Shown one piece after another: positions 2,107-46,843 of a DNA stretch of 46,894 nucleotides. Location of the stretch: IMG/VR virus record IMGVR_UViG_3300007956_000005, positions 1 through 46,894 of that record. The stretch is one strand, 5' to 3'. The notes below the pieces were generated by a model. It did not search any database, was not told where the DNA came from, and was given only the letters and a program-made list of their open reading frames with translations. Numbering within the stretch: position 1 is the stretch's first letter; every line of letters begins with the position of its first letter. This stretch comes from a virus. Lineage: Duplodnaviria > Caudoviricetes. Made by a program: the position numbers and the translations under genes.

Positions 2107-2119
2107 GCCTACGCCCCAA

Positions 2120-2194
2120 ATAAAAACCCCCCAATCCGAAGACTAGGGGGTTATCACTACACAGTGAAGAGAGTGAGTTGGGAGGATACTCACA
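2120..2194 (-). ncRNA. candidate small RNA 1 (~75 nt) with anti-SD loop
   Basis: Promoter TTGCAC-N17-TATCTT (2200..2228, minus); hairpin GUGAGU-aUCCUCCCa-ACUCAC, hairpin UCACU..AGUGA, then a cUUCGg terminator with U-run (2122..2152); no ORF. Confidence 0.6.
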
Positions 2195-2199
2195 TCAAA

Positions 2200-2228
2200 A
2201 AGATAACGAATCACTTAACTAAGTGCAA
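2200..2228 (-). promoter_or_regulatory. sigma70 promoter of sRNA-1 with operator CACTTAACTAAGTG (2212..2225) and TGATTCG site
   Basis: TTGCAC-N17-TATCTT; perfect inverted repeat CACTTA-ac-TAAGTG. Confidence 0.6.
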
Positions 2229-2245: not shown

Positions 2246-2275
2246 TTGACTCCAACTAATACCCATAACTATGGT
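2246..2275 (+). promoter_or_regulatory. integrase promoter TTGACT-N18-TATGGT with operator CCCATAACTATGGT (2262..2275)
   Basis: Sigma70-like hexamers 33 nt upstream of the integrase start; the operator overlaps the -10. Confidence 0.6.
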
Positions 2276-2307
2276 TAGTCATCCGCATAACCACGGGAGG
2301 TTGTAGA

Positions 2308-3426
2308 ATGGGATCGATTAAATATTTGGAACGGCATCAGCTATCCACAGGTGAAATATCTTGGGGTGCAAACCCCTCAAAGGCTGTTAGAGAGGCCTTA
2401 CTAGTTAAGTACGAAAGCTATAAGGATAAAAAAGATGCCGTAGACCGCTGTATGGAGTGGGAGAAGGCATTTCTCGACTACAAACGAGGTATGGACAGGA
2501 AAAAACATATTAGCGAGAACTCTGTTAATGGTTTGGTTGCTGCCTATAAAAATACAAGCAATTGGGACCGTCTTTCGGTTAATAGTAAGAACACCTATAA
2601 TCAATTGATACATTCTGTGATGGAAACTCGCATTGGGCGGTCAAATATCACCTTTGGGCAGACCCTACATCACAATATTACGGTAAAAGTAGCTGAATCC
2701 TTACACAAGCAACTGTGTAATGACGTGAGTGAACATCGTGCCAACCATGTATGTAAAGTTTTACGGCGTGTGTGGTTCGTAGGATTCCGTTTAGGCCTTA
2801 CACGCTCCAATCCATTTTCTAAGATGGGTTTAGTAACACTGCCTTCCAGAGATGTGCGTTGGGAGAAGGGACACGTAGATATATTTGTGAAACAGGCTGA
2901 TAAAATGGGCCTCACATCTATCGGTACGTTAGCTTTAATGTGCTATCATCTATGCCAGCGTATTGGTGACATGAGGCAGATGCGCTGGGGTAATTATGAC
3001 TTACAAGGGGATGGTTTCTTCGACTTTGTACAAGAAAAGAGCCGTACAGTGCGTAAACCTCAAGGGAACCTGGTATCTGTACCTGTGTACGATGAAGTAC
3101 TCAAAGAACGCCTAGGCCGTCTTACCCGTGGTGGTAAGGATGATTTCATTATTCTCAATGAGCGTACTGGTAGGCCATACACACGGTGGGCTTATAAGGC
3201 TGTAGCAGAGGTACGTAAGGCCGCTGGTCTACCAGAAGAACTCAAGATCTCTGATCTTAGACGTACAGGGGCCACTGAGGCTGGCGAAGCTGGCCTGACA
3301 GAGGATGAGATCATGTCACTTACAGGACATACATCCCGTGAGGTTGTCAGTGTTTATGTAAAGAAAACCCGTAGGATGGCGTCCACCGCAGCAAGAAAGA
3401 GGCATGAAAATGAGCGATATCAATAA
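2308..3426 (+). CDS. int: tyrosine integrase
   Basis: Catalytic motifs QRIGD (R), EKS (K), DLRRT, TGH, VY; N-terminal arm and core-binding regions; GGGAGG SD. Confidence 0.92.
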   Translation: MGSIKYLERHQLSTGEISWGANPSKAVREALLVKYESYKDKKDAVDRCMEWEKAFLDYKRGMDRKKHISENSVNGLVAAYKNTSNWDRLSVNSKNTYNQLIHSVMETRIGRSNITFGQTLHHNITVKVAESLHKQLCNDVSEHRANHVCKVLRRVWFVGFRLGLTRSNPFSKMGLVTLPSRDVRWEKGHVDIFVKQADKMGLTSIGTLALMCYHLCQRIGDMRQMRWGNYDLQGDGFFDFVQEKSRTVRKPQGNLVSVPVYDEVLKERLGRLTRGGKDDFIILNERTGRPYTRWAYKAVAEVRKAAGLPEELKISDLRRTGATEAGEAGLTEDEIMSLTGHTSREVVSVYVKKTRRMASTAARKRHENERYQ

Positions 3427-4510: not shown

Positions 4511-4548
4511 TGGTTGCGGGGGTAGGATTTGAACCTACGACCTTCAGG
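4511..4548 (-). mobile_element. attP: attP core: 3' half of tRNA-fMet(CAT)
   Basis: Minus strand reads CCTGAAGGTCGTAGGTTCAAATCCTACCCCCGCAACCA (anticodon-stem 3' strand, T-arm, acceptor strand, CCA of alphaproteobacterial initiator tRNA); 5' half absent; AT-rich flanks. Confidence 0.85.
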
Positions 4549-4626: not shown

Positions 4627-4668
4627 ACCATAATTAACTGTTGACTAATGAACCATTGACTGTATCCT
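4627..4668 (+). promoter_or_regulatory. primase promoter TTGACT-N16-TATCCT preceded by operator ACCATAATTAACTG
   Basis: Operator-like 14-mer at 4627..4640 abuts the -35 at 4641..4646. Confidence 0.5.
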
Positions 4669-4714
4669 ACGGATACCCCGTCCAGGGGTAACGTATATAT
4701 GGGAGTATATACAC

Positions 4715-5497
4715 ATGAATTTTAGTTACCGTGATCAATGGGAAATACTACAAGCAATAAATCTTACGGATGGTGAGCATAAAGCAATAGACTGCCCGTT
4801 CTGTGGTGGACGTAAGAAATTCAGTATTTCCAAGATAGATGGCAAGACTTTATGGAACTGTTATAGGGCTAGCTGTAACGCTAAAGGTGTGAACGCTGGC
4901 TCTAGATCCATAGAGGAAGCCAAAGCATATATGGCTGGTACAAACAAAACTAAGATAGAGCGTAAGACTACACCTCTACCTACAATGACTACGCCTATAA
5001 GAAACCACCCTAAATCAATAGAGTATCTTAAATCTGTTAACTCATATGAAGCCTACGAGAAGGGAAGTATCACGGTACGATACGCCCCTGGAGAAGATAG
5101 AGTCCTATTTTATACGAGAGATAAAGAAGGTGCTGTAGGACGTAACATGAAAGGGTACGGACCTAAGTGGTGGACCTATGGGGATACAACGTCAGGTATA
5201 CACGTTGGTACAGGATCTACAGCGGTACTTGTAGAGGATGTAGCTTCTGCTTGTGCAGTTTCACGGTGTAGTAACCTGGTAGGTGTAGCTTTGTTAGGAA
5301 CCAACCTAACTAAAAACCTTAGTAAATCCTTAAATGTGTATAAAAAACTTATTATTATTCTTGACAATGATGCAAAACAAAAGGCAATGTGCATGTTGCG
5401 AGGGTTAGATATGCCCTCAACAATGAGAATAACTAAGTCTGATCTAAAGACACTTAGTTTAAAAGATATTGAGAGGCTTATATACGATGTTACTTGA
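4715..5497 (+). CDS. DNA primase (Zn-finger + TOPRIM)
   Basis: CPFCGG...CYRASC Zn-binding domain; VLVED and LDND TOPRIM acidic motifs. Confidence 0.9.
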   Translation: MNFSYRDQWEILQAINLTDGEHKAIDCPFCGGRKKFSISKIDGKTLWNCYRASCNAKGVNAGSRSIEEAKAYMAGTNKTKIERKTTPLPTMTTPIRNHPKSIEYLKSVNSYEAYEKGSITVRYAPGEDRVLFYTRDKEGAVGRNMKGYGPKWWTYGDTTSGIHVGTGSTAVLVEDVASACAVSRCSNLVGVALLGTNLTKNLSKSLNVYKKLIIILDNDAKQKAMCMLRGLDMPSTMRITKSDLKTLSLKDIERLIYDVT

Positions 5498-5742
5498 TAA
5501 AATAGAAAACACAATTAGATCCGTATATGATTGGCCCTACTTGATTTCTGATACTCAGGCTAGACATATTAGGAATTCACGTAGATCTATAGATAAATCA
5601 GACCGTTACGGAATTAGCACTGCTACCGCAATGGGTACATATTTACTTCATCCACACCTTGGCCCGCCGACTTTTTAAGTCTAAAGGAGCCGTGCAGAAT
5701 ACTACTGCATTATTAACAACCTAAAATACTAAAAGGTGTACT

Positions 5743-5949
5743 ATGAAGTTACGAGCGCTAGTCCTCCTGGACTACGATTTACCAGATGCGGGATTAATTG
5801 AAGCTGCCGATCAACAAAGAGCGCTTCAAATTAAAATCGATGAGATCACTAAGGATAACCCTAACATTGTTTACAGTACTGTAGACATGCGTGAGCGCAG
5901 AGGTGACACACAGCCTGATCTGAAAAAAATGAAATTTCGTCAGACATAA
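5743..5949 (+). CDS. small hypothetical protein
   Basis: 68 aa ORF with AAGG SD and its own terminator. Confidence 0.7.
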   Translation: MKLRALVLLDYDLPDAGLIEAADQQRALQIKIDEITKDNPNIVYSTVDMRERRGDTQPDLKKMKFRQT

Positions 5950-6015: not shown

Positions 6016-6045
6016 TTGATTACCATTACAATGGTCTTTTATAAC
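6016..6045 (+). promoter_or_regulatory. helicase promoter TTGATT-N18-TATAAC with operator ACCATTACAATGGT (6022..6035)
   Basis: Perfect inverted repeat ACCATT-ac-AATGGT in the spacer. Confidence 0.65.
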
Positions 6046-6088
6046 GTGAGTGTAGCATCACGCTACTGCTAGCTAGAAAGGACCAATA

Positions 6089-7306
6089 ATGGATAAAGCA
6101 TTGTTGAAGACCTTATTGTCTTCAGAATTTTATCAAGCAAACAAAACAAAAATGAGGCAGTCGTTATTCACAGGTAACAATGCAGAGGTTTATAAAACCA
6201 TTGCTCAAGCACAGGACAAGTATGACCAAGATATAAGTACCAACGATATCTTAGCTATCTGGGCAACTAATCACCCTGTCGCAACAATCGCTGAAAAAGA
6301 AGATTTTGAAGACACTTTAACCGCAGTCAGAGAACAACAGTCTCTAACACCTGAAATAGCAAAGGATGTTATCGGGGATCTTTGGCGTAAGGAAACAGGT
6401 AGGGATATCACTACCCTGGGTATAAAGATAGCTGAAGGCCACGTTGAGGCAATGGCTACTCTAAAGAGCCTGTTGGAGCGTACCTCTGAAGATTACCTAC
6501 CTGATGACTATGGTCCTGCAACTACTGACGATCTGTATGAGTTACTGGCGCAAGCGAGTGATGAGTCTCGCTGGAAATTTAATATAAACCAGTTGTCACG
6601 TCATGTGTACGGTGTCGGTCCCACAGAGTTTATGATCATATTTGCAAGGCCTGAGACAGGTAAGTCGGCCTTAGCAGTCAGCCTATGTGCATCCCCTGAT
6701 GGTTTCTGTCAGCAAGGAGCAAAGGTTTTGTACATAGGTAACGAGGAAGCAACCCGCCGCACTAAGCTACGGGCAATACAATCCTTCACAGGTATGAGTA
6801 CTAGTGACATACAGGCCAATCCTGATCTAGCTTCTAGCCGATACTTAGCTATTCGTGATCGTTTGATTATGAAGGATGCCCAGGAGTGGGACATGACTAT
6901 GTTAGATGGTTATGTATCTCGTATTAAGCCTGATGTTTTAGTTATAGACCAATTGGACAAGGTCAATGTAGCGGGTCAGTTTGGTGGCACACACGAAAAG
7001 CTTCGTGAGATATACCGACAAGCACGGGAACTAGCCAAACGACACGAATGTGCAATCATTGCAGTATCCCAGGCGAGTGCTGAAGCAGAAGGACGTGTAC
7101 GTCTAGATTTCTCTATGATGGAGAACAGTAGAACAGGTAAGGCAGCGGAAGCTGATTTGATCTGTGGTGTAGGCAAATCATCTGGTGAAGATGATGATGG
7201 TCCTGATCCTACTAGGTTCTTACAAATATCTAAAAACAAATTGTCGGGGTGGCATGGTCAGGTGATCTGCAATCTACAAGCCGATATCACACGGTATGTA
7301 GACTGA
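6089..7306 (+). CDS. SF4 (DnaB-like) replicative helicase
   Basis: Walker A ARPETGKS, Walker B VLVIDQLD, VSQAS, KAAEAD, ISKNK. Confidence 0.92.
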   Translation: MDKALLKTLLSSEFYQANKTKMRQSLFTGNNAEVYKTIAQAQDKYDQDISTNDILAIWATNHPVATIAEKEDFEDTLTAVREQQSLTPEIAKDVIGDLWRKETGRDITTLGIKIAEGHVEAMATLKSLLERTSEDYLPDDYGPATTDDLYELLAQASDESRWKFNINQLSRHVYGVGPTEFMIIFARPETGKSALAVSLCASPDGFCQQGAKVLYIGNEEATRRTKLRAIQSFTGMSTSDIQANPDLASSRYLAIRDRLIMKDAQEWDMTMLDGYVSRIKPDVLVIDQLDKVNVAGQFGGTHEKLREIYRQARELAKRHECAIIAVSQASAEAEGRVRLDFSMMENSRTGKAAEADLICGVGKSSGEDDDGPDPTRFLQISKNKLSGWHGQVICNLQADITRYVD

Positions 7307-7830: not shown

Positions 7831-8009
7831 TGCTTAATGAACATGACCTCAAAGAGTTTTATGAACTGCTTGAAAAGAAGCAGGAAGAATATTCCAGCGA
7901 AAAAAAGCCTGAACTTAAAAGCCTTATAGATGAGCAAGTAGATCTTCTCCAGGCACTCATATCTGTACAGACTAAGATCCTAGCTAAGTTGTCGGGGTTC
8001 AATGTATGA
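7827..8009 (+). CDS. small coiled-coil hypothetical protein
   Basis: ATGA overlaps at both ends; GGGAG SD. Confidence 0.7.
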   Translation: MMLNEHDLKEFYELLEKKQEEYSSEKKPELKSLIDEQVDLLQALISVQTKILAKLSGFNV

Positions 8010-8398
8010 CAAAAACCCTCGTACTAGATCTGGAAACCACCGTCCAACGTTTTGATGGTAAGACAGACAACAGCCCATTTAACCCTAATAACAAGTGTGT
8101 TTCAGCGCACTTTGGTTGGCTAGGCTCTGATACCGTGGATGAAGTAACCCACTTGGTGTTTAATCATAATGATAAGGCTACACCTGATAGCCCAGAACCT
8201 TTGCGTAAGGTTTTGTCTGAGGCTGATATATTAGTTGCCCACAATGCAAAGTTTGATGTTCTCTGGTTGAGGGCAATGGGTATGCCTATCCCCCCTAAAA
8301 TTAGATGCACCATGATCAATGAATACATTCTGGCTAAAGGGCAGCGCACAAAACTTTCTTTGAAAGAAACTGCCCAGCGCAGAGGTGCGGTGGAATGA
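8006..8398 (+). CDS. DNA polymerase A, N-terminal part of the 3'-5' exonuclease (ExoI, ExoII)
   Basis: VLDLETT (ExoI), AHNAKFD (ExoII), CTMINEY..LSLK. Confidence 0.85.
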   Translation: MTKTLVLDLETTVQRFDGKTDNSPFNPNNKCVSAHFGWLGSDTVDEVTHLVFNHNDKATPDSPEPLRKVLSEADILVAHNAKFDVLWLRAMGMPIPPKIRCTMINEYILAKGQRTKLSLKETAQRRGAVE

Positions 8399-10167
8399 TT
8401 ACACAAAAGAAAAGTGACCTAGTCGATGATTTGTTTACGTCAGGTGTCGGCTTTGAAGCCATGCCCTTGTATGATGTAGTCATACCCTATGCAGAAGCGG
8501 ATGTTAAAGCATGTGCAGAGGTGTATCTATCTCAACTGAGCAGTTTTGAGGAAGAAGATAACTTATCTTTAAAACCTATCGTAGTCCTAATGAATGAAAT
8601 GCTTGAGTTCTTAGTGGAGTGCGAAACAAACGGTGTTCAGATAGACTTAGACGTACTCTCTTCTATCGGGAATGAATTTCAGAAGGAGCATGATGAACTC
8701 ACCAAACGCCTAGATGAAATAGTAGAGATGGTAATGGGTGATACTCCTGTAAATTTAAATTCAGGAGCAGATGTATCCAAGCTTATCTACAGTAGAGAGG
8801 TGTCTAATAGAGATTATCATATACAGACATTTCGTATCGGTACTGATGAGCATGGTAGAACACTCCCGCCCCCTAGAATGAACAAGTCGGAGTTTAATAC
8901 CGCAGTACGTTCAAACACTAAGGTTATTCAAAAAACATCTATAGAGTGCTGCCCTGAGTGCGATGGTAGGGGTCAGGTTCAGAAGTATAAGCAAATAACT
9001 AGGTATAAGAATAAGAAACCATATAAAGTTGTAGGCGAAGCTTATAAGAACCTATCCAAGTGTCCTTCCTGTTTAGGGGTAGGGGCTTTCTACATTCCTA
9101 CTGGTAAGGTTGCAGGTTTAAAACTCAGTCCTTTGGGTCCACAGTATGCTGCGGCTCACGGTTTTAAGACTGATAAAGGGACTATTAAACTTCTAATATC
9201 CCACGCAAAAAACAAGAATAACGATATAGCTGTCGAGTTCCTGACTAAGATAAGTAGGCTTTCAGCGGTATCCACTTATTTAACTAGCTTTGTTAAAGGC
9301 ATTGAAACCTGGACACGTCCTAATGGTCTAATACATACAAACTTTAATCAATGCATCACCGCAACAGGGCGTCTGAGTTCTTCCAATATTAACCTGCAAA
9401 ATATGCCAAAACGGGGCTTCCCCGTCCGTAAGGCTATGGTGTCTAGATTTGACTACAAGATTGTTGAATTCGATTACTCAGGATTAGAATTTCGTGTTGC
9501 TGGAGAAGTGTCCCGAGATCCTCAGATTATTGAAGATATTCTGAATGGTAAGGACATCCATAAACAGACTGCTTCTATCATTCATAGAATACCTGCCGAA
9601 GAAGTGACCAAAGAAACTCGTTCCCAAATAAAGTTTCACACGTTTGCACCTCTATATGGTTCGCAAGGGTCAGGTTTAGCGGAACATGAGAAGAAATATT
9701 ACGACGAATTCTTTGTGATCTACAAAGGTCTAAAATCTTACCAGCAACGTCTTATGGATGGAGTTGTTAAGAACGGCATAGTTCAAACTCCTAGTGGCAG
9801 ACAGTACTATTGGCCTAATGCCCGTAGACTAAGAAATGGGCGGGTTACTAACGCTACTCAGGTAGTCAACTACCCCATCCAGGGATTTGCTACTGGGGAT
9901 ATAGTACCACTAGCTTGTGTAAGGGCGTTACGCCTTTTTAAGAGCCATAAACTCAAGTCAAAACTAATTCTAACGGTACACGACTCAATTGTAGTTGACT
10001 GCCATCCAGATGAATTGTCACAGGTCAAAAAAGTTTTAGTCGAGGCTATGGCTAATGTAGGCGAAGAATTAGAGCAACGCTTTGATTACAAACCAGTTTT
10101 ACCGCTAGATGTAGAGATGACTGCGGGTAAGAACTGGTTAGATCAGGATGATATTCCACTTGATTAA
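8395..10167 (+). CDS. polA: DNA polymerase A: ExoIII, DnaJ-type Zn finger and polymerase domain
   Basis: YAEADV (ExoIII); CPECDGRG and CPSCLGVG (CxxCxGxG); TGRLSS, DYSGLEFR (motif A), RSQIKFHTFAPLYG (motif B), VHDS (motif C). Confidence 0.93.
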   Translation: MITQKKSDLVDDLFTSGVGFEAMPLYDVVIPYAEADVKACAEVYLSQLSSFEEEDNLSLKPIVVLMNEMLEFLVECETNGVQIDLDVLSSIGNEFQKEHDELTKRLDEIVEMVMGDTPVNLNSGADVSKLIYSREVSNRDYHIQTFRIGTDEHGRTLPPPRMNKSEFNTAVRSNTKVIQKTSIECCPECDGRGQVQKYKQITRYKNKKPYKVVGEAYKNLSKCPSCLGVGAFYIPTGKVAGLKLSPLGPQYAAAHGFKTDKGTIKLLISHAKNKNNDIAVEFLTKISRLSAVSTYLTSFVKGIETWTRPNGLIHTNFNQCITATGRLSSSNINLQNMPKRGFPVRKAMVSRFDYKIVEFDYSGLEFRVAGEVSRDPQIIEDILNGKDIHKQTASIIHRIPAEEVTKETRSQIKFHTFAPLYGSQGSGLAEHEKKYYDEFFVIYKGLKSYQQRLMDGVVKNGIVQTPSGRQYYWPNARRLRNGRVTNATQVVNYPIQGFATGDIVPLACVRALRLFKSHKLKSKLILTVHDSIVVDCHPDELSQVKKVLVEAMANVGEELEQRFDYKPVLPLDVEMTAGKNWLDQDDIPLD

Positions 10168-11096: not shown

Positions 11097-11950
11097 TGCT
11101 CCAAGAACTCATTCATATGACAATGGATCAAATGTCTAACGACGAATACGACGATCTAGTTGTGAAGGATGAGTGGATTGATGCCGTTGGTGAAAACATA
11201 AAGCGTGAACTAAAGAAAAGCCTAGCCCCTAGGGGTAAAGATTTTAGACTTCGGGGGTCCAATCTGGGTAAACCACCTTGCGTCCTTCAAATGCAAAAGT
11301 CTGGGGCTGAACCTTCTAGAAAACCTTACCATTTCGTAATGCAGATGCTGCACGGGTATATGATCGAAGAGATTATGACACTCATACTAAAAGTGGCAGA
11401 TGCAAACATTACGGGTGGTAAGGCCAAGGTTTCTTTAGATCTTGAGGGTGTTACCATTAAGGGTGAGGACGATATTCAGATCGATGGTAAAGAGTATGAT
11501 GTGAAATCGTGTTCACCCTGGGCCTTCAACAACAAGTGGAGCGAAGGATATCATGGCTTACGCAAGTCAGATAACTTTGGCTACGTTGGTCAGCTTATGG
11601 CTTACTCAGAGGCACAGGACATACCTGTTGGTGGGTGGCTGGTAGTCAATAAATCCACTGGTGAGGTTTTGGTTGTGGACGCAGACAACAGCCCTTCAGA
11701 ACGCAAAGCAGTTTTGAATAAGTTGAAGTCAACGGTACGCACTATCAAGAGTGATGCACCCTTTAAGCGTTGCTTTGAGCCTGTCAATGATACCTTCAAG
11801 AAAATGCCCACAGGACGCAAGTATCTGAGCAAAGATAACTGTGGAATGTGCGACTTCAAAACCTCTTGTTACCCTGGTGTTAAACTTAAACCGCAGCCTG
11901 AGAGTAAGGCAGCTAATCCACCATTAAAATGGTACATTAAAGAGGCCTAA
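11096..11950 (+). CDS. PD-(D/E)XK (Cas4/RecB-like) exonuclease
   Basis: GEDD..YDVKS, GYVGQLMAY, split Cys cluster (C..CGMCDFKTSC). Confidence 0.8.
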   Translation: MLQELIHMTMDQMSNDEYDDLVVKDEWIDAVGENIKRELKKSLAPRGKDFRLRGSNLGKPPCVLQMQKSGAEPSRKPYHFVMQMLHGYMIEEIMTLILKVADANITGGKAKVSLDLEGVTIKGEDDIQIDGKEYDVKSCSPWAFNNKWSEGYHGLRKSDNFGYVGQLMAYSEAQDIPVGGWLVVNKSTGEVLVVDADNSPSERKAVLNKLKSTVRTIKSDAPFKRCFEPVNDTFKKMPTGRKYLSKDNCGMCDFKTSCYPGVKLKPQPESKAANPPLKWYIKEA

Positions 11951-27942: not shown

Positions 27943-28365
27943 TTAAAACTCCTTCGTATGTACCTTATTAGGCTGTTTATACCGCCGCCACTTGGCAGGG
28001 ACATTCTGTCCTAAAACGGTTTGTGAATGTTTTCTCATGCCACGCATGACTTTGAGTGAGTGACCGTAGGGGGCTATAAAATCTATGCCCCATAGCTGAT
28101 AACGATCATCAATTATATCAGGACGCTTAAACACCACTTCATCAGGCATCCATTGCTCTAATATAAATTCGTCTGACTCTGCTTGAGTTATCCAAGCCCA
28201 CGATACAAATCCAATCGGCTTGTTATCCGAATAGAACAGACGGGCTTTTTCATGGATCAGGGGGTAGAGGCAGTAGTGAGTAAATTCAACCAGGGTGTAC
28301 GATCTATGGAACGAGGATTGGTTGAATAAAAACAGGCTGTCTAAAACAGCTTTCTGTAATTGCAT
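27943..28365 (-). CDS. toxin-activating lysine acyltransferase (HlyC/RtxC/CyaC family)
   Basis: SSFHRSY (S-x-x-H), PIGFVSWA, LWGIDFIAPYGH, WRR, matching HlyC family motifs SPLHR, PVAYCSWA, WFIDWIAPFG. Confidence 0.8.
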   Translation of the reverse strand: MQLQKAVLDSLFLFNQSSFHRSYTLVEFTHYCLYPLIHEKARLFYSDNKPIGFVSWAWITQAESDEFILEQWMPDEVVFKRPDIIDDRYQLWGIDFIAPYGHSLKVMRGMRKHSQTVLGQNVPAKWRRYKQPNKVHTKEF

Positions 28366-38488: not shown

Positions 38489-38517
38489 ATTATAACACCT
38501 AACTAAGTGCTTTGCAA
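38489..38517 (-). promoter_or_regulatory. capsid promoter TTGCAA-N17-TATAAT with operator CACCTAACTAAGTG (38496..38509)
   Basis: Near-consensus sigma70 hexamers. Confidence 0.75.
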
Positions 38518-46387: not shown

Positions 46388-46843
46388 TCACTTATAATAC
46401 AGGTACAGAAGGTATATGCCGCCAGCTACTGCTCCGAAGAATATGAGAACCCCAATAAATATTGAGACATTCTCTACTAACTCTTCTCGTTCTCTCTGAC
46501 GTTTTTTCTCAGCCTCTTTACGGGCTTTTCTGGATTCAGCTTGGTATTCTACCCAAGAGTCATATAATCCTGGTCTTCCGAACAGGCGCATGTGAGACTC
46601 TAGCTGACGCCGCTGTTCTTTGATTTGATCTAGGGCTAAGAACGATTCAAAATCATCCGTATCTTTACCCAGCATCTTGTTAAAAACTGATTTCTTTTCG
46701 CTCTCAGCCTTTTCTCTAAGACTGTCTTCCGCACTTAAAAAATCACTTATACTTTTACCGCATTGGGCTAATTCCCTACCATTTGATATTGCGGTCTTGA
46801 TCACTCCGAAGGCTGCATTAGCCATCGCAATCTCTGCAAGCAT
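46388..46843 (-). CDS. hypothetical protein with C-terminal TM anchor
   Basis: 151 aa; GGGAG SD; helical with a hydrophobic C-terminus. Confidence 0.7.
   Translation of the reverse strand: MLAEIAMANAAFGVIKTAISNGRELAQCGKSISDFLSAEDSLREKAESEKKSVFNKMLGKDTDDFESFLALDQIKEQRRQLESHMRLFGRPGLYDSWVEYQAESRKARKEAEKKRQREREELVENVSIFIGVLIFFGAVAGGIYLLYLYYK

Follow-up and report, generated by a model that had tools for sequence, protein, structure and literature searches.

The C4 RNA of phages P1 and P7 is a small RNA that biases the switch between lysis and lysogeny. Roles of the same kind are described for P22 sar, for OOP and aQ of phage lambda and for 24B_1 of Phi24B, and sar in particular is described as blocking translation initiation (PMC12197685). 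In P4, the CI RNA pairs with phage transcripts and replication genes are thereby kept off in the lysogen, whose immunity also depends on CI (PMC4825925). The cuckoo RNAs consist of two to four adjacent hairpins, each of which carries CCUCCUCCC in its loop (PMC4615179), and CcsR, of the same group, is matured by CcaF1, whose DUF1127 domain serves to bind and mature small RNAs in Rhodobacter (PMC8034643). HMO-2011-type phages are described as a dominant marine group with a broad distribution, and CRP-3 as a phage that integrates into its host (PMC9038755, PMC6918029), with tRNA-Met(CAT) as its reported integration target (PMC6918029). The word 'repressor' does not appear in the main texts of PMC9038755 and PMC6918029.

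Here we describe a predicted small RNA encoded next to the integrase gene of such a phage. The window, meaning the whole 46,894-nt stretch of DNA that was analysed, is a 46.9-kb virus record that we assign by gene order and homologs to the CRP-3-like HMO-2011-type roseophages. Following the definition of these phages in PMC6918029, its integrase lies upstream of the replication module, the genes follow the order ThyX-primase-helicase-polymerase, and the polymerase carries two CXXCXGXG motifs. The DNA polymerase is split into a 130-aa ORF (8006-8398) and a 590-aa ORF (8395-10167) with an ATGA overlap, as it also is in the complete relative G001; in 11 other genomes a single ORF of 701–725 aa takes their place, the gene was not called in G005, and the split is likely natural. 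A GC-rich hairpin forms the 5' end of the replication transcript (4675-4689), with a layout that is kept across lineages and deleted in L017. The primase and a 68-aa ORF are separated by a long gap (5500-5742) that holds hairpin-like stretches and a weak ORF of 63 aa, and for which an Rfam comparison gave no convincing match. The minus-strand ORF at 27943-28365 occupies the same position as a CRP-235 gene annotated as a putative toxin-activating lysine acyltransferase. Finally, the 13-bp direct repeat TGACGTGCGAGTA occurs at 1807-1819 and 2064-2076, on either side of a small ORF (1865-2056); repeat pairs with similar spacing are present in 9 of the 14 genomes, one of them with a variant sequence, and are possibly a protein-binding or recombination site.

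Table 1. Features of the small RNA locus and of its predicted targets (window coordinates).
Feature	Position	Strand	Observations
Predicted small RNA, ~76 nt	2118..2193	-	Fold z -4.45; conserved unit; start probably at G2193
Intrinsic terminator, cUUCGg loop and U tract	2118..2152	-	Stem 2152-2125; 10/10 pairs kept, 3 double-changed
Linker / weak hairpin 2 (seed 2)	2153..2172	-	2168-2158 can pair over primase AUG; elsewhere the linker pairs with SDs or start codons of further targets
Hairpin 1, 6-bp stem, loop AUCCUCCCA (2187-2179; seed 1, anti-SD)	2173..2193	-	6/6 pairs kept in 8 sequences
-10 hexamer TATCTT	2200..2205	-	TAnnnT in 76/91 distinct RNAs (a count that leans upward because the caller scores this pattern); middle varies
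-35 hexamer TTGCAC	2223..2228	-	Invariant in 8/8 close relatives; TTGC in 59/91 distinct RNAs
Integrase promoter TTGACT-18-TATGGT	2246..2275	+	Back to back with RNA promoter; conserved
Integrase SD GGGAGG, candidate seed 1 target	2295..2300	+	Rank 2 of 53; complementary to CCUCCC
Tyrosine integrase	2308..3426	+	PF00589; 43-48% to CRP-3, CRP-212 and CRP-235 integrases
attP core, tRNA 3' half ending in CCA	4511..4548	-	From sequence; CRP-3 has the same site
Replication operon promoter TTGACT-16-TATCCT	4641..4668	+	Layout conserved; start ~4675
Primase leader hairpin, SD UGGGAG (4700-4705) in loop	4693..4712	+	Main predicted target; rank 1 of 53
Primase, first cistron of replication operon	4715..5497	+	Zinc ribbon PF08273; syntenic with annotated primases
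Helicase promoter TTGATT-18-TATAAC and leader, after terminator	6016..6091	+	Predicted RNA target elsewhere; search for pairing negative in the window

The preliminary description had placed at this locus a minus-strand promoter TTGCAC-N17-TATCTT, followed by three hairpins that end in a cUUCGg terminator, an anti-Shine-Dalgarno (anti-SD) motif in the first loop, and no ORF. The two hexamers (2228-2223 and 2205-2200) and their 17-nt spacer are indeed present, as is the anti-SD loop. The 76-nt strand is predicted to fold into the three hairpins, with only 1 of 200 shuffles as stable. Conservation between lineages does not extend to the middle hairpin. The lack of an ORF holds in so far as the RNA from G2193 contains no AUG, but a 53-codon minus-strand ORF with a TTG start (2134-1973) begins within the terminator. 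A peptide-coding role was rejected, given that three of the seven RNAs checked have no AUG and the remaining ones have unrelated frames. Among the close relatives, the invariant -35 hexamer is followed by a -10 hexamer that varies as TAnnnT, then by six variable bases and an invariant G, which makes G2193 the likely start of the RNA. A generic promoter scan did not list this promoter, and its support is the conservation of TTGC and TAnnnT; 17 bp separate its -35 hexamer from that of the integrase promoter. The stems show covariation: in eight aligned lineage members all 128 of the 128 cells of the 16 stem pairs were paired and five pairs were double-changed, two of them among the six pairs of hairpin 1, and the covariation score was equalled by 0 of 500 shuffles, for these eight sequences and with the weak middle hairpin left out of the count. 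The unit combines the features of a trans-acting base-pairing small RNA gene, namely its own promoter, an intrinsic terminator, an exposed seed and no conserved ORF, and is very probably a real RNA.

The unit is widespread beside related integrases. Integrase searches yielded three sets of 80 viral or metagenomic loci, together with 4 genomic loci. The sets overlapped widely, and we removed loci whose upstream DNA was too short as well as repeated entries for a single contig. A unit of promoter plus terminator was recognised first in 83 of 87 loci and subsequently in 99 of 100, many of them redundant and all called by a permissive caller. Stricter counts over 91 distinct RNAs, whose median length is 76 nt, found CUCCC within the first 45 nt in 79. 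CRP-3, CRP-212 and CRP-235 all carry the unit, which is absent from CRP-738, L069, L100, L102 and L206; in HMO-2011 and CRP-1 the primase directly follows the integrase inside an operon. Four integrase loci came from bacterial genomes, one of them with the unit. Searching the cultured phages with the locus by blastn returned nothing, and homologs were found only by their position beside the integrase. Longer versions of 119–152 nt with two or three C-rich loops lie upstream of the integrase in L061, L065, L089-L099 and L191-L194, which suggests that seed modules are added and lost.

Pairing of the RNA with gene starts was scored by an in-house script as duplex energy plus the opening cost of both partners, using in-house start calls. 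By this score the primase ranked first of 53 start regions in the window, and 2/68, 2/37, 1/66 (CRP-235), 2/64 (CRP-3) and 3/68 elsewhere, so that it was among the top three in 6 of the 14 genomes, from three lineages, and mid or low in the other eight. An extra ORF before the primase explains only three of these eight mid or low ranks (G002, G008 and G009). The predicted mode of pairing differs by lineage and involves the SD, the start codon or codons 2-7: the SD loop is the predicted site in the window phage, UCAUCCAC/GUGGAUGA pair over the primase start in CRP-235, and codons 2-7 are paired in CRP-3, where the Arg codon is AGG, which makes up 9-10% of the Arg codons in those genomes. In the gene family of the minus-strand window gene at 46388-46843, the start region was in the top 15% for RNA pairing in 8/8 other genomes, with a 14-nt match in CRP-3. 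Overall, two late genes with G-rich SDs ranked high in 8/8 and 8/9 genomes; both were set aside as targets, as they had no clear preference for the RNA of their own lineage (z -1.6 for the 46388-46843 family and +0.5 for the other).

We then asked whether RNAs pair better with the targets of their own phage than with foreign ones; row and column means were subtracted beforehand, and p values came from permuted clades. In a first set (65 loci, 12 clades), the integrase gave p 0.00035 and the primase p 0.052. In some lineages a small ORF separates the primase from the attP-side promoter, and with the first cistron taken in place of the primase the same set gave p 0.0008, for a class that was defined after the primase result had been seen. 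The larger set comprised 71 of 115 distinct loci, with at most two per close clade; the first cistron was assigned in 45 of them, 12 being left out and 11 set by hand. Own pairing with the first replication cistron again exceeded foreign pairing (45 loci; z -3.8 and -5.2 with 12 and 21 clades; clade permutation p 0.0007). At the two clade cut-offs, z was -4.6/-4.6 for the integrase, -2.3/-3.8 for the primase and -3.2/-3.4 for the helicase, and for the controls it ranged from +0.5 to -1.8 for five other start regions and from +0.3 to +1.9 for two coding windows inside the integrase gene, with +1.1 for ThyX. Over 44 gene families in 14 genomes the z values ran from -2.8 to +2.2. This range exceeds that of the permutation null and means that p values obtained by permutation are underestimates; five of the seven top-placed families were nevertheless the helicase, the first cistron, the primase, the integrase and the polymerase. 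About 12 target classes were tried. When independent pairs were drawn from the integrase tree, the signal persisted for the first cistron only (median p 0.0085 and 0.0039, from 13 and 9 pairs), the other values being 0.46 and 0.05 for the integrase, 0.055 and 0.19 for the primase, 0.28 and 0.12 for the helicase, and 0.09 and 0.19 for the gene after the integrase.

Perfect complements of at least 7 nt gave own/foreign fractions of 0.44/0.16 for the first cistron, 0.38/0.16 for the helicase and 0.28/0.15 for the integrase; two coding controls gave 0.14/0.06 and 0.06/0.07, and the ratio of the former is similar to that of the integrase. The own first-cistron matches at or below -4 kcal/mol (n=33) fell on the SD in 16 cases, on the start in 7, on early codons in 9 and upstream in 1. 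The reverse complement of the RNA gave no signal in the own-versus-foreign test, a control of low power because that strand is G-rich. Taken together, these comparisons suggest that the RNA probably represses the first replication cistron.

For the integrase and the helicase the prediction is more tentative. CCUCCC had also been proposed to pair with the integrase SD, and this site is complementary and ranks high, yet the strong preference seen by clade permutation (p 0.0001) was weak in independent pairs. In L017 the loop AACUCCCU pairs with integrase AGGGAGUU, and in CRP-212, whose lineage has no primase pairing, GCCUCAC pairs with GUGAGGU of the integrase. Helicase matches, which the preliminary description had missed together with the linker as a second pairing region, include 10 perfect pairs between UGCCUCAUCC of CRP-235 and the helicase leader, and CUUCAUUGCUAGUG of L073 over the helicase start; no pairing of the RNA was found with the helicase leader of the window phage. 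Repression of the integrase by the RNA, and of the helicase in other lineages, might occur, the chance being in our estimate a little short of even for each.

How the RNA would reach the primase, and whether it acts as an RNA at all, can be read in other ways. The locus might hold no functional RNA, but an insulating terminator with DNA sites, or an old local duplication of the leader. This would suit a unit that has a convergent terminator on one side and a promoter region on the other and was called by a permissive terminator caller, but the compensatory changes in hairpin 1, the fixed geometry of -35, -10 and start, and a strand-specific signal (as far as the low-powered control on the G-rich strand can tell) make it highly improbable. 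In the model of the preliminary description, hairpin 1 opens and forms a 15-17-bp duplex that runs from the primase SD into the AUG. The underlying match stands: 2179-2195 and 4700-4716 are identical at 14/17 positions, which makes this the best non-self match in the window and places it first among 854 start regions from 14 genomes, with a chance of ~0.0015 under a mononucleotide model over 54 start regions; as judged from the sequence, this 17-mer match is more than chance in the window genome. The cofold minimum also forms the duplex, and 11-12 of its 15 positions are preserved in six of the ten members of the lineage. However, the likely start at G2193 leaves the two AUG-facing bases outside the RNA, and the match is therefore 12/15; among the relatives five keep 11-12 of 15, two keep 8 and two keep 5-7. 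The net cofold gain of -4.3 kcal/mol falls short of the average for RNAs with shuffled stem and linker (-5.5) and was reached by 68% of 500 loop-keeping, stem/linker-shuffled controls, in a calculation that does not model kissing loops, and the site is 40th among 30-nt windows by unpenalised duplex energy. In L008, which has the same hairpin, no more than 8 positions match, and pairing runs through the linker with 10 perfect pairs. We consequently regard the long duplex as very unlikely to be the mechanism, even though the primase itself remains the top predicted target in the window. Pairing through the loop seed and a second seed is the better reading. The primase SD lies in a hairpin loop in 9 of 10 lineage leaders, with differing stems, and positions 2168-2158 of the linker are able to form 10 bp with one bulge across the primase AUG, at a duplex energy of -9.1 kcal/mol, compared with -11.1 in L002 and -12.9 in L005. 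The linker is predicted to cover the AUG in the window phage, L002, L005 and L007, and the SD in L008 and L009. Predicted net binding between RNA and primase is weak in the window (-4.3 to -6.6 kcal/mol).

Two further explanations accept the RNA and differ in its purpose. It could be a general anti-SD regulator that mainly acts on host mRNAs, for example those of transporters or phage receptors, with the phage matches as side effects of G-rich SDs. Indeed, CUCCC is kept in the 79 RNAs even where primase and integrase lack GGGAG, the layout resembles that of anti-hemB, the betaproteobacterial toxic sRNA and MmgR at sub-threshold scores, and the two late genes with G-rich SDs rank high; a general anti-SD motif does not, however, predict better own than foreign pairing with the first replication cistron, and the late genes are without a clear own preference, so that we find this explanation unlikely. 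Alternatively, the same pairing might time the lytic cycle through a delayed shut-off of integrase and early replication genes, with a protein repressor keeping lysogeny. The integrase is itself a candidate target, whose early silencing would disfavour integration, and palindromes occupy the promoter spacers: CACTTA-N2-TAAGTG (2212-2225) and ACCAT-N4-ATGGT (2262-2275 and 6022-6035) fall within or overlap the promoters of the RNA, the integrase and the helicase, and are candidate operators of a protein regulator, a hint drawn from the sequence. Related motifs recur at the promoters of relatives, but the palindrome counts were not above chance, being reached by 25/100 and 8/100 shuffles. Further palindromes lie at 11920-11933 and 38496-38509. 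No repressor fold or family emerged among the proteins examined: a repressor-like family was found neither among 12 small window proteins (PHROGs) nor among 37 small proteins of G001 (Pfam), the 68-aa ORF at 5743 was predicted with modest fold confidence (pLDDT 67) and had no Foldseek match at E 0.001, and repressor look-ups in the Atlas returned unnamed viral clusters or nothing. Moreover, the unit goes with the integrase-attP layout, being missing where the integrase is embedded in an operon (CRP-738), and HMO-2011 has no such gap. We consider this timing role distinctly unlikely.

Instead, we favour by a small degree the reading that the RNA is a trans-acting translational silencer of early genes that would promote lysogeny; that lysogeny, and not lytic timing, is its purpose we infer from the targets and the lack of a recognisable repressor. 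The unit would be transcribed, from the promoter back to back with that of the integrase, as a 76-nt trans-acting RNA whose exposed loop CUCCCA would first meet UGGGAG in the primase leader loop (6 bp), and whose linker would, instead or in addition, cover the primase AUG. Ribosome entry at the primase would drop, and coupled downstream genes would drop too. The seed 1 loop may also dampen integrase translation, and elsewhere the linker may cover the helicase start. In the prophage, the replication promoter would lie just inside the attachment site, where leaky expression would start replication. Pairing with the starts of replication and integration genes would offer a direct, testable account of dormancy, and the three cultured phages with the unit share one host strain, FZCC0040. 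A broader version, which we consider speculative and somewhat unlikely as a whole, is that CRP-3-like HMO-2011-type phages rely on the RNA as their immunity factor and that it replaces a CI protein: its two seeds would silence the leading cistron of every early transcript, namely those of the replication operon, the helicase operon and the integrase, and lineage-specific co-evolution of seed and ribosome-binding site would define immunity groups across a widespread marine phage group.

With regard to known RNAs, an Rfam search, which had been proposed for this RNA, was run on the window and 11 relatives, and no family reached its threshold. The suggested link to cuckoo/CcsR/ar14 (RF02344) fits in that the anti-SD motif is rich in C and lies in a hairpin loop, the stems vary and the setting is alphaproteobacterial, but does not extend to family membership: unlike the repeated loops described for cuckoo RNAs (PMC4615179), there is one CUCCC loop here, CCUCCUCCC occurs in 2/91 RNAs, and ar14 scored 15.5 bits on 1/10 relatives, against a gathering score of 58.8, and was not listed for the window. 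The RNA also has its own promoter directly upstream, and in G001 the DUF1127 gene is ~5 kb away. This small DUF1127 protein (L105:12244-12402 of G001; Pfam E 1.8e-6) is present in 10/14 genomes and missing only from incomplete records; it is not in the window. By analogy with CcaF1, it may be a partner of the phage RNA. Anti-hemB (RF02837), the betaproteobacterial toxic sRNA (RF02278) and MmgR/suhB (RF00519) resemble our RNA in being short, with UCCUCCC in the first loop and a terminator at the end, but these are catalogued from bacteria, whereas the window RNA is tied to a phage integrase promoter. Anti-hemB scored 20.2 bits here and 14.1-28.5 on 7/10 relatives (gathering score 49.5), the toxic sRNA at best 19.6 of 50, and MmgR/suhB 15.9-17.6 on 3/10 relatives (gathering score 41), the last not being listed for the window.

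Literature searches, whose scope excludes subscription papers and supplements, returned no account of the RNA, which thus apparently represents an undescribed phage RNA family, outside Rfam 15 and with natural seed-target covariation; its main target class is supported by sequence comparison and its function is predicted. P4 CI has no sequence or Rfam match to the window RNA, and its likeness lies in a phage RNA that pairs with phage transcripts, a role that is predicted here. As described in PMC4825925, CI is processed from the leader of the operon that it controls, has flanking target sites and causes premature termination. In contrast, the window RNA is a stand-alone divergent unit with its own promoter and terminator, its predicted targets lie 100 bp (on the other strand) and, for the main one, 2.5 kb away, and its predicted action is to keep ribosomes off one to three separate leaders. 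P22 sar, OOP, aQ and 24B_1, in the account of PMC12197685, target regulators (antirepressor, cII, Q) in systems that also have a protein repressor, and do so mostly as antisense RNAs from the same locus, whereas the predicted targets here are replication and integration enzymes, contacted by short seeds that vary by lineage. Among these described systems, the window RNA would work most like the P4 CI RNA and P22 sar.
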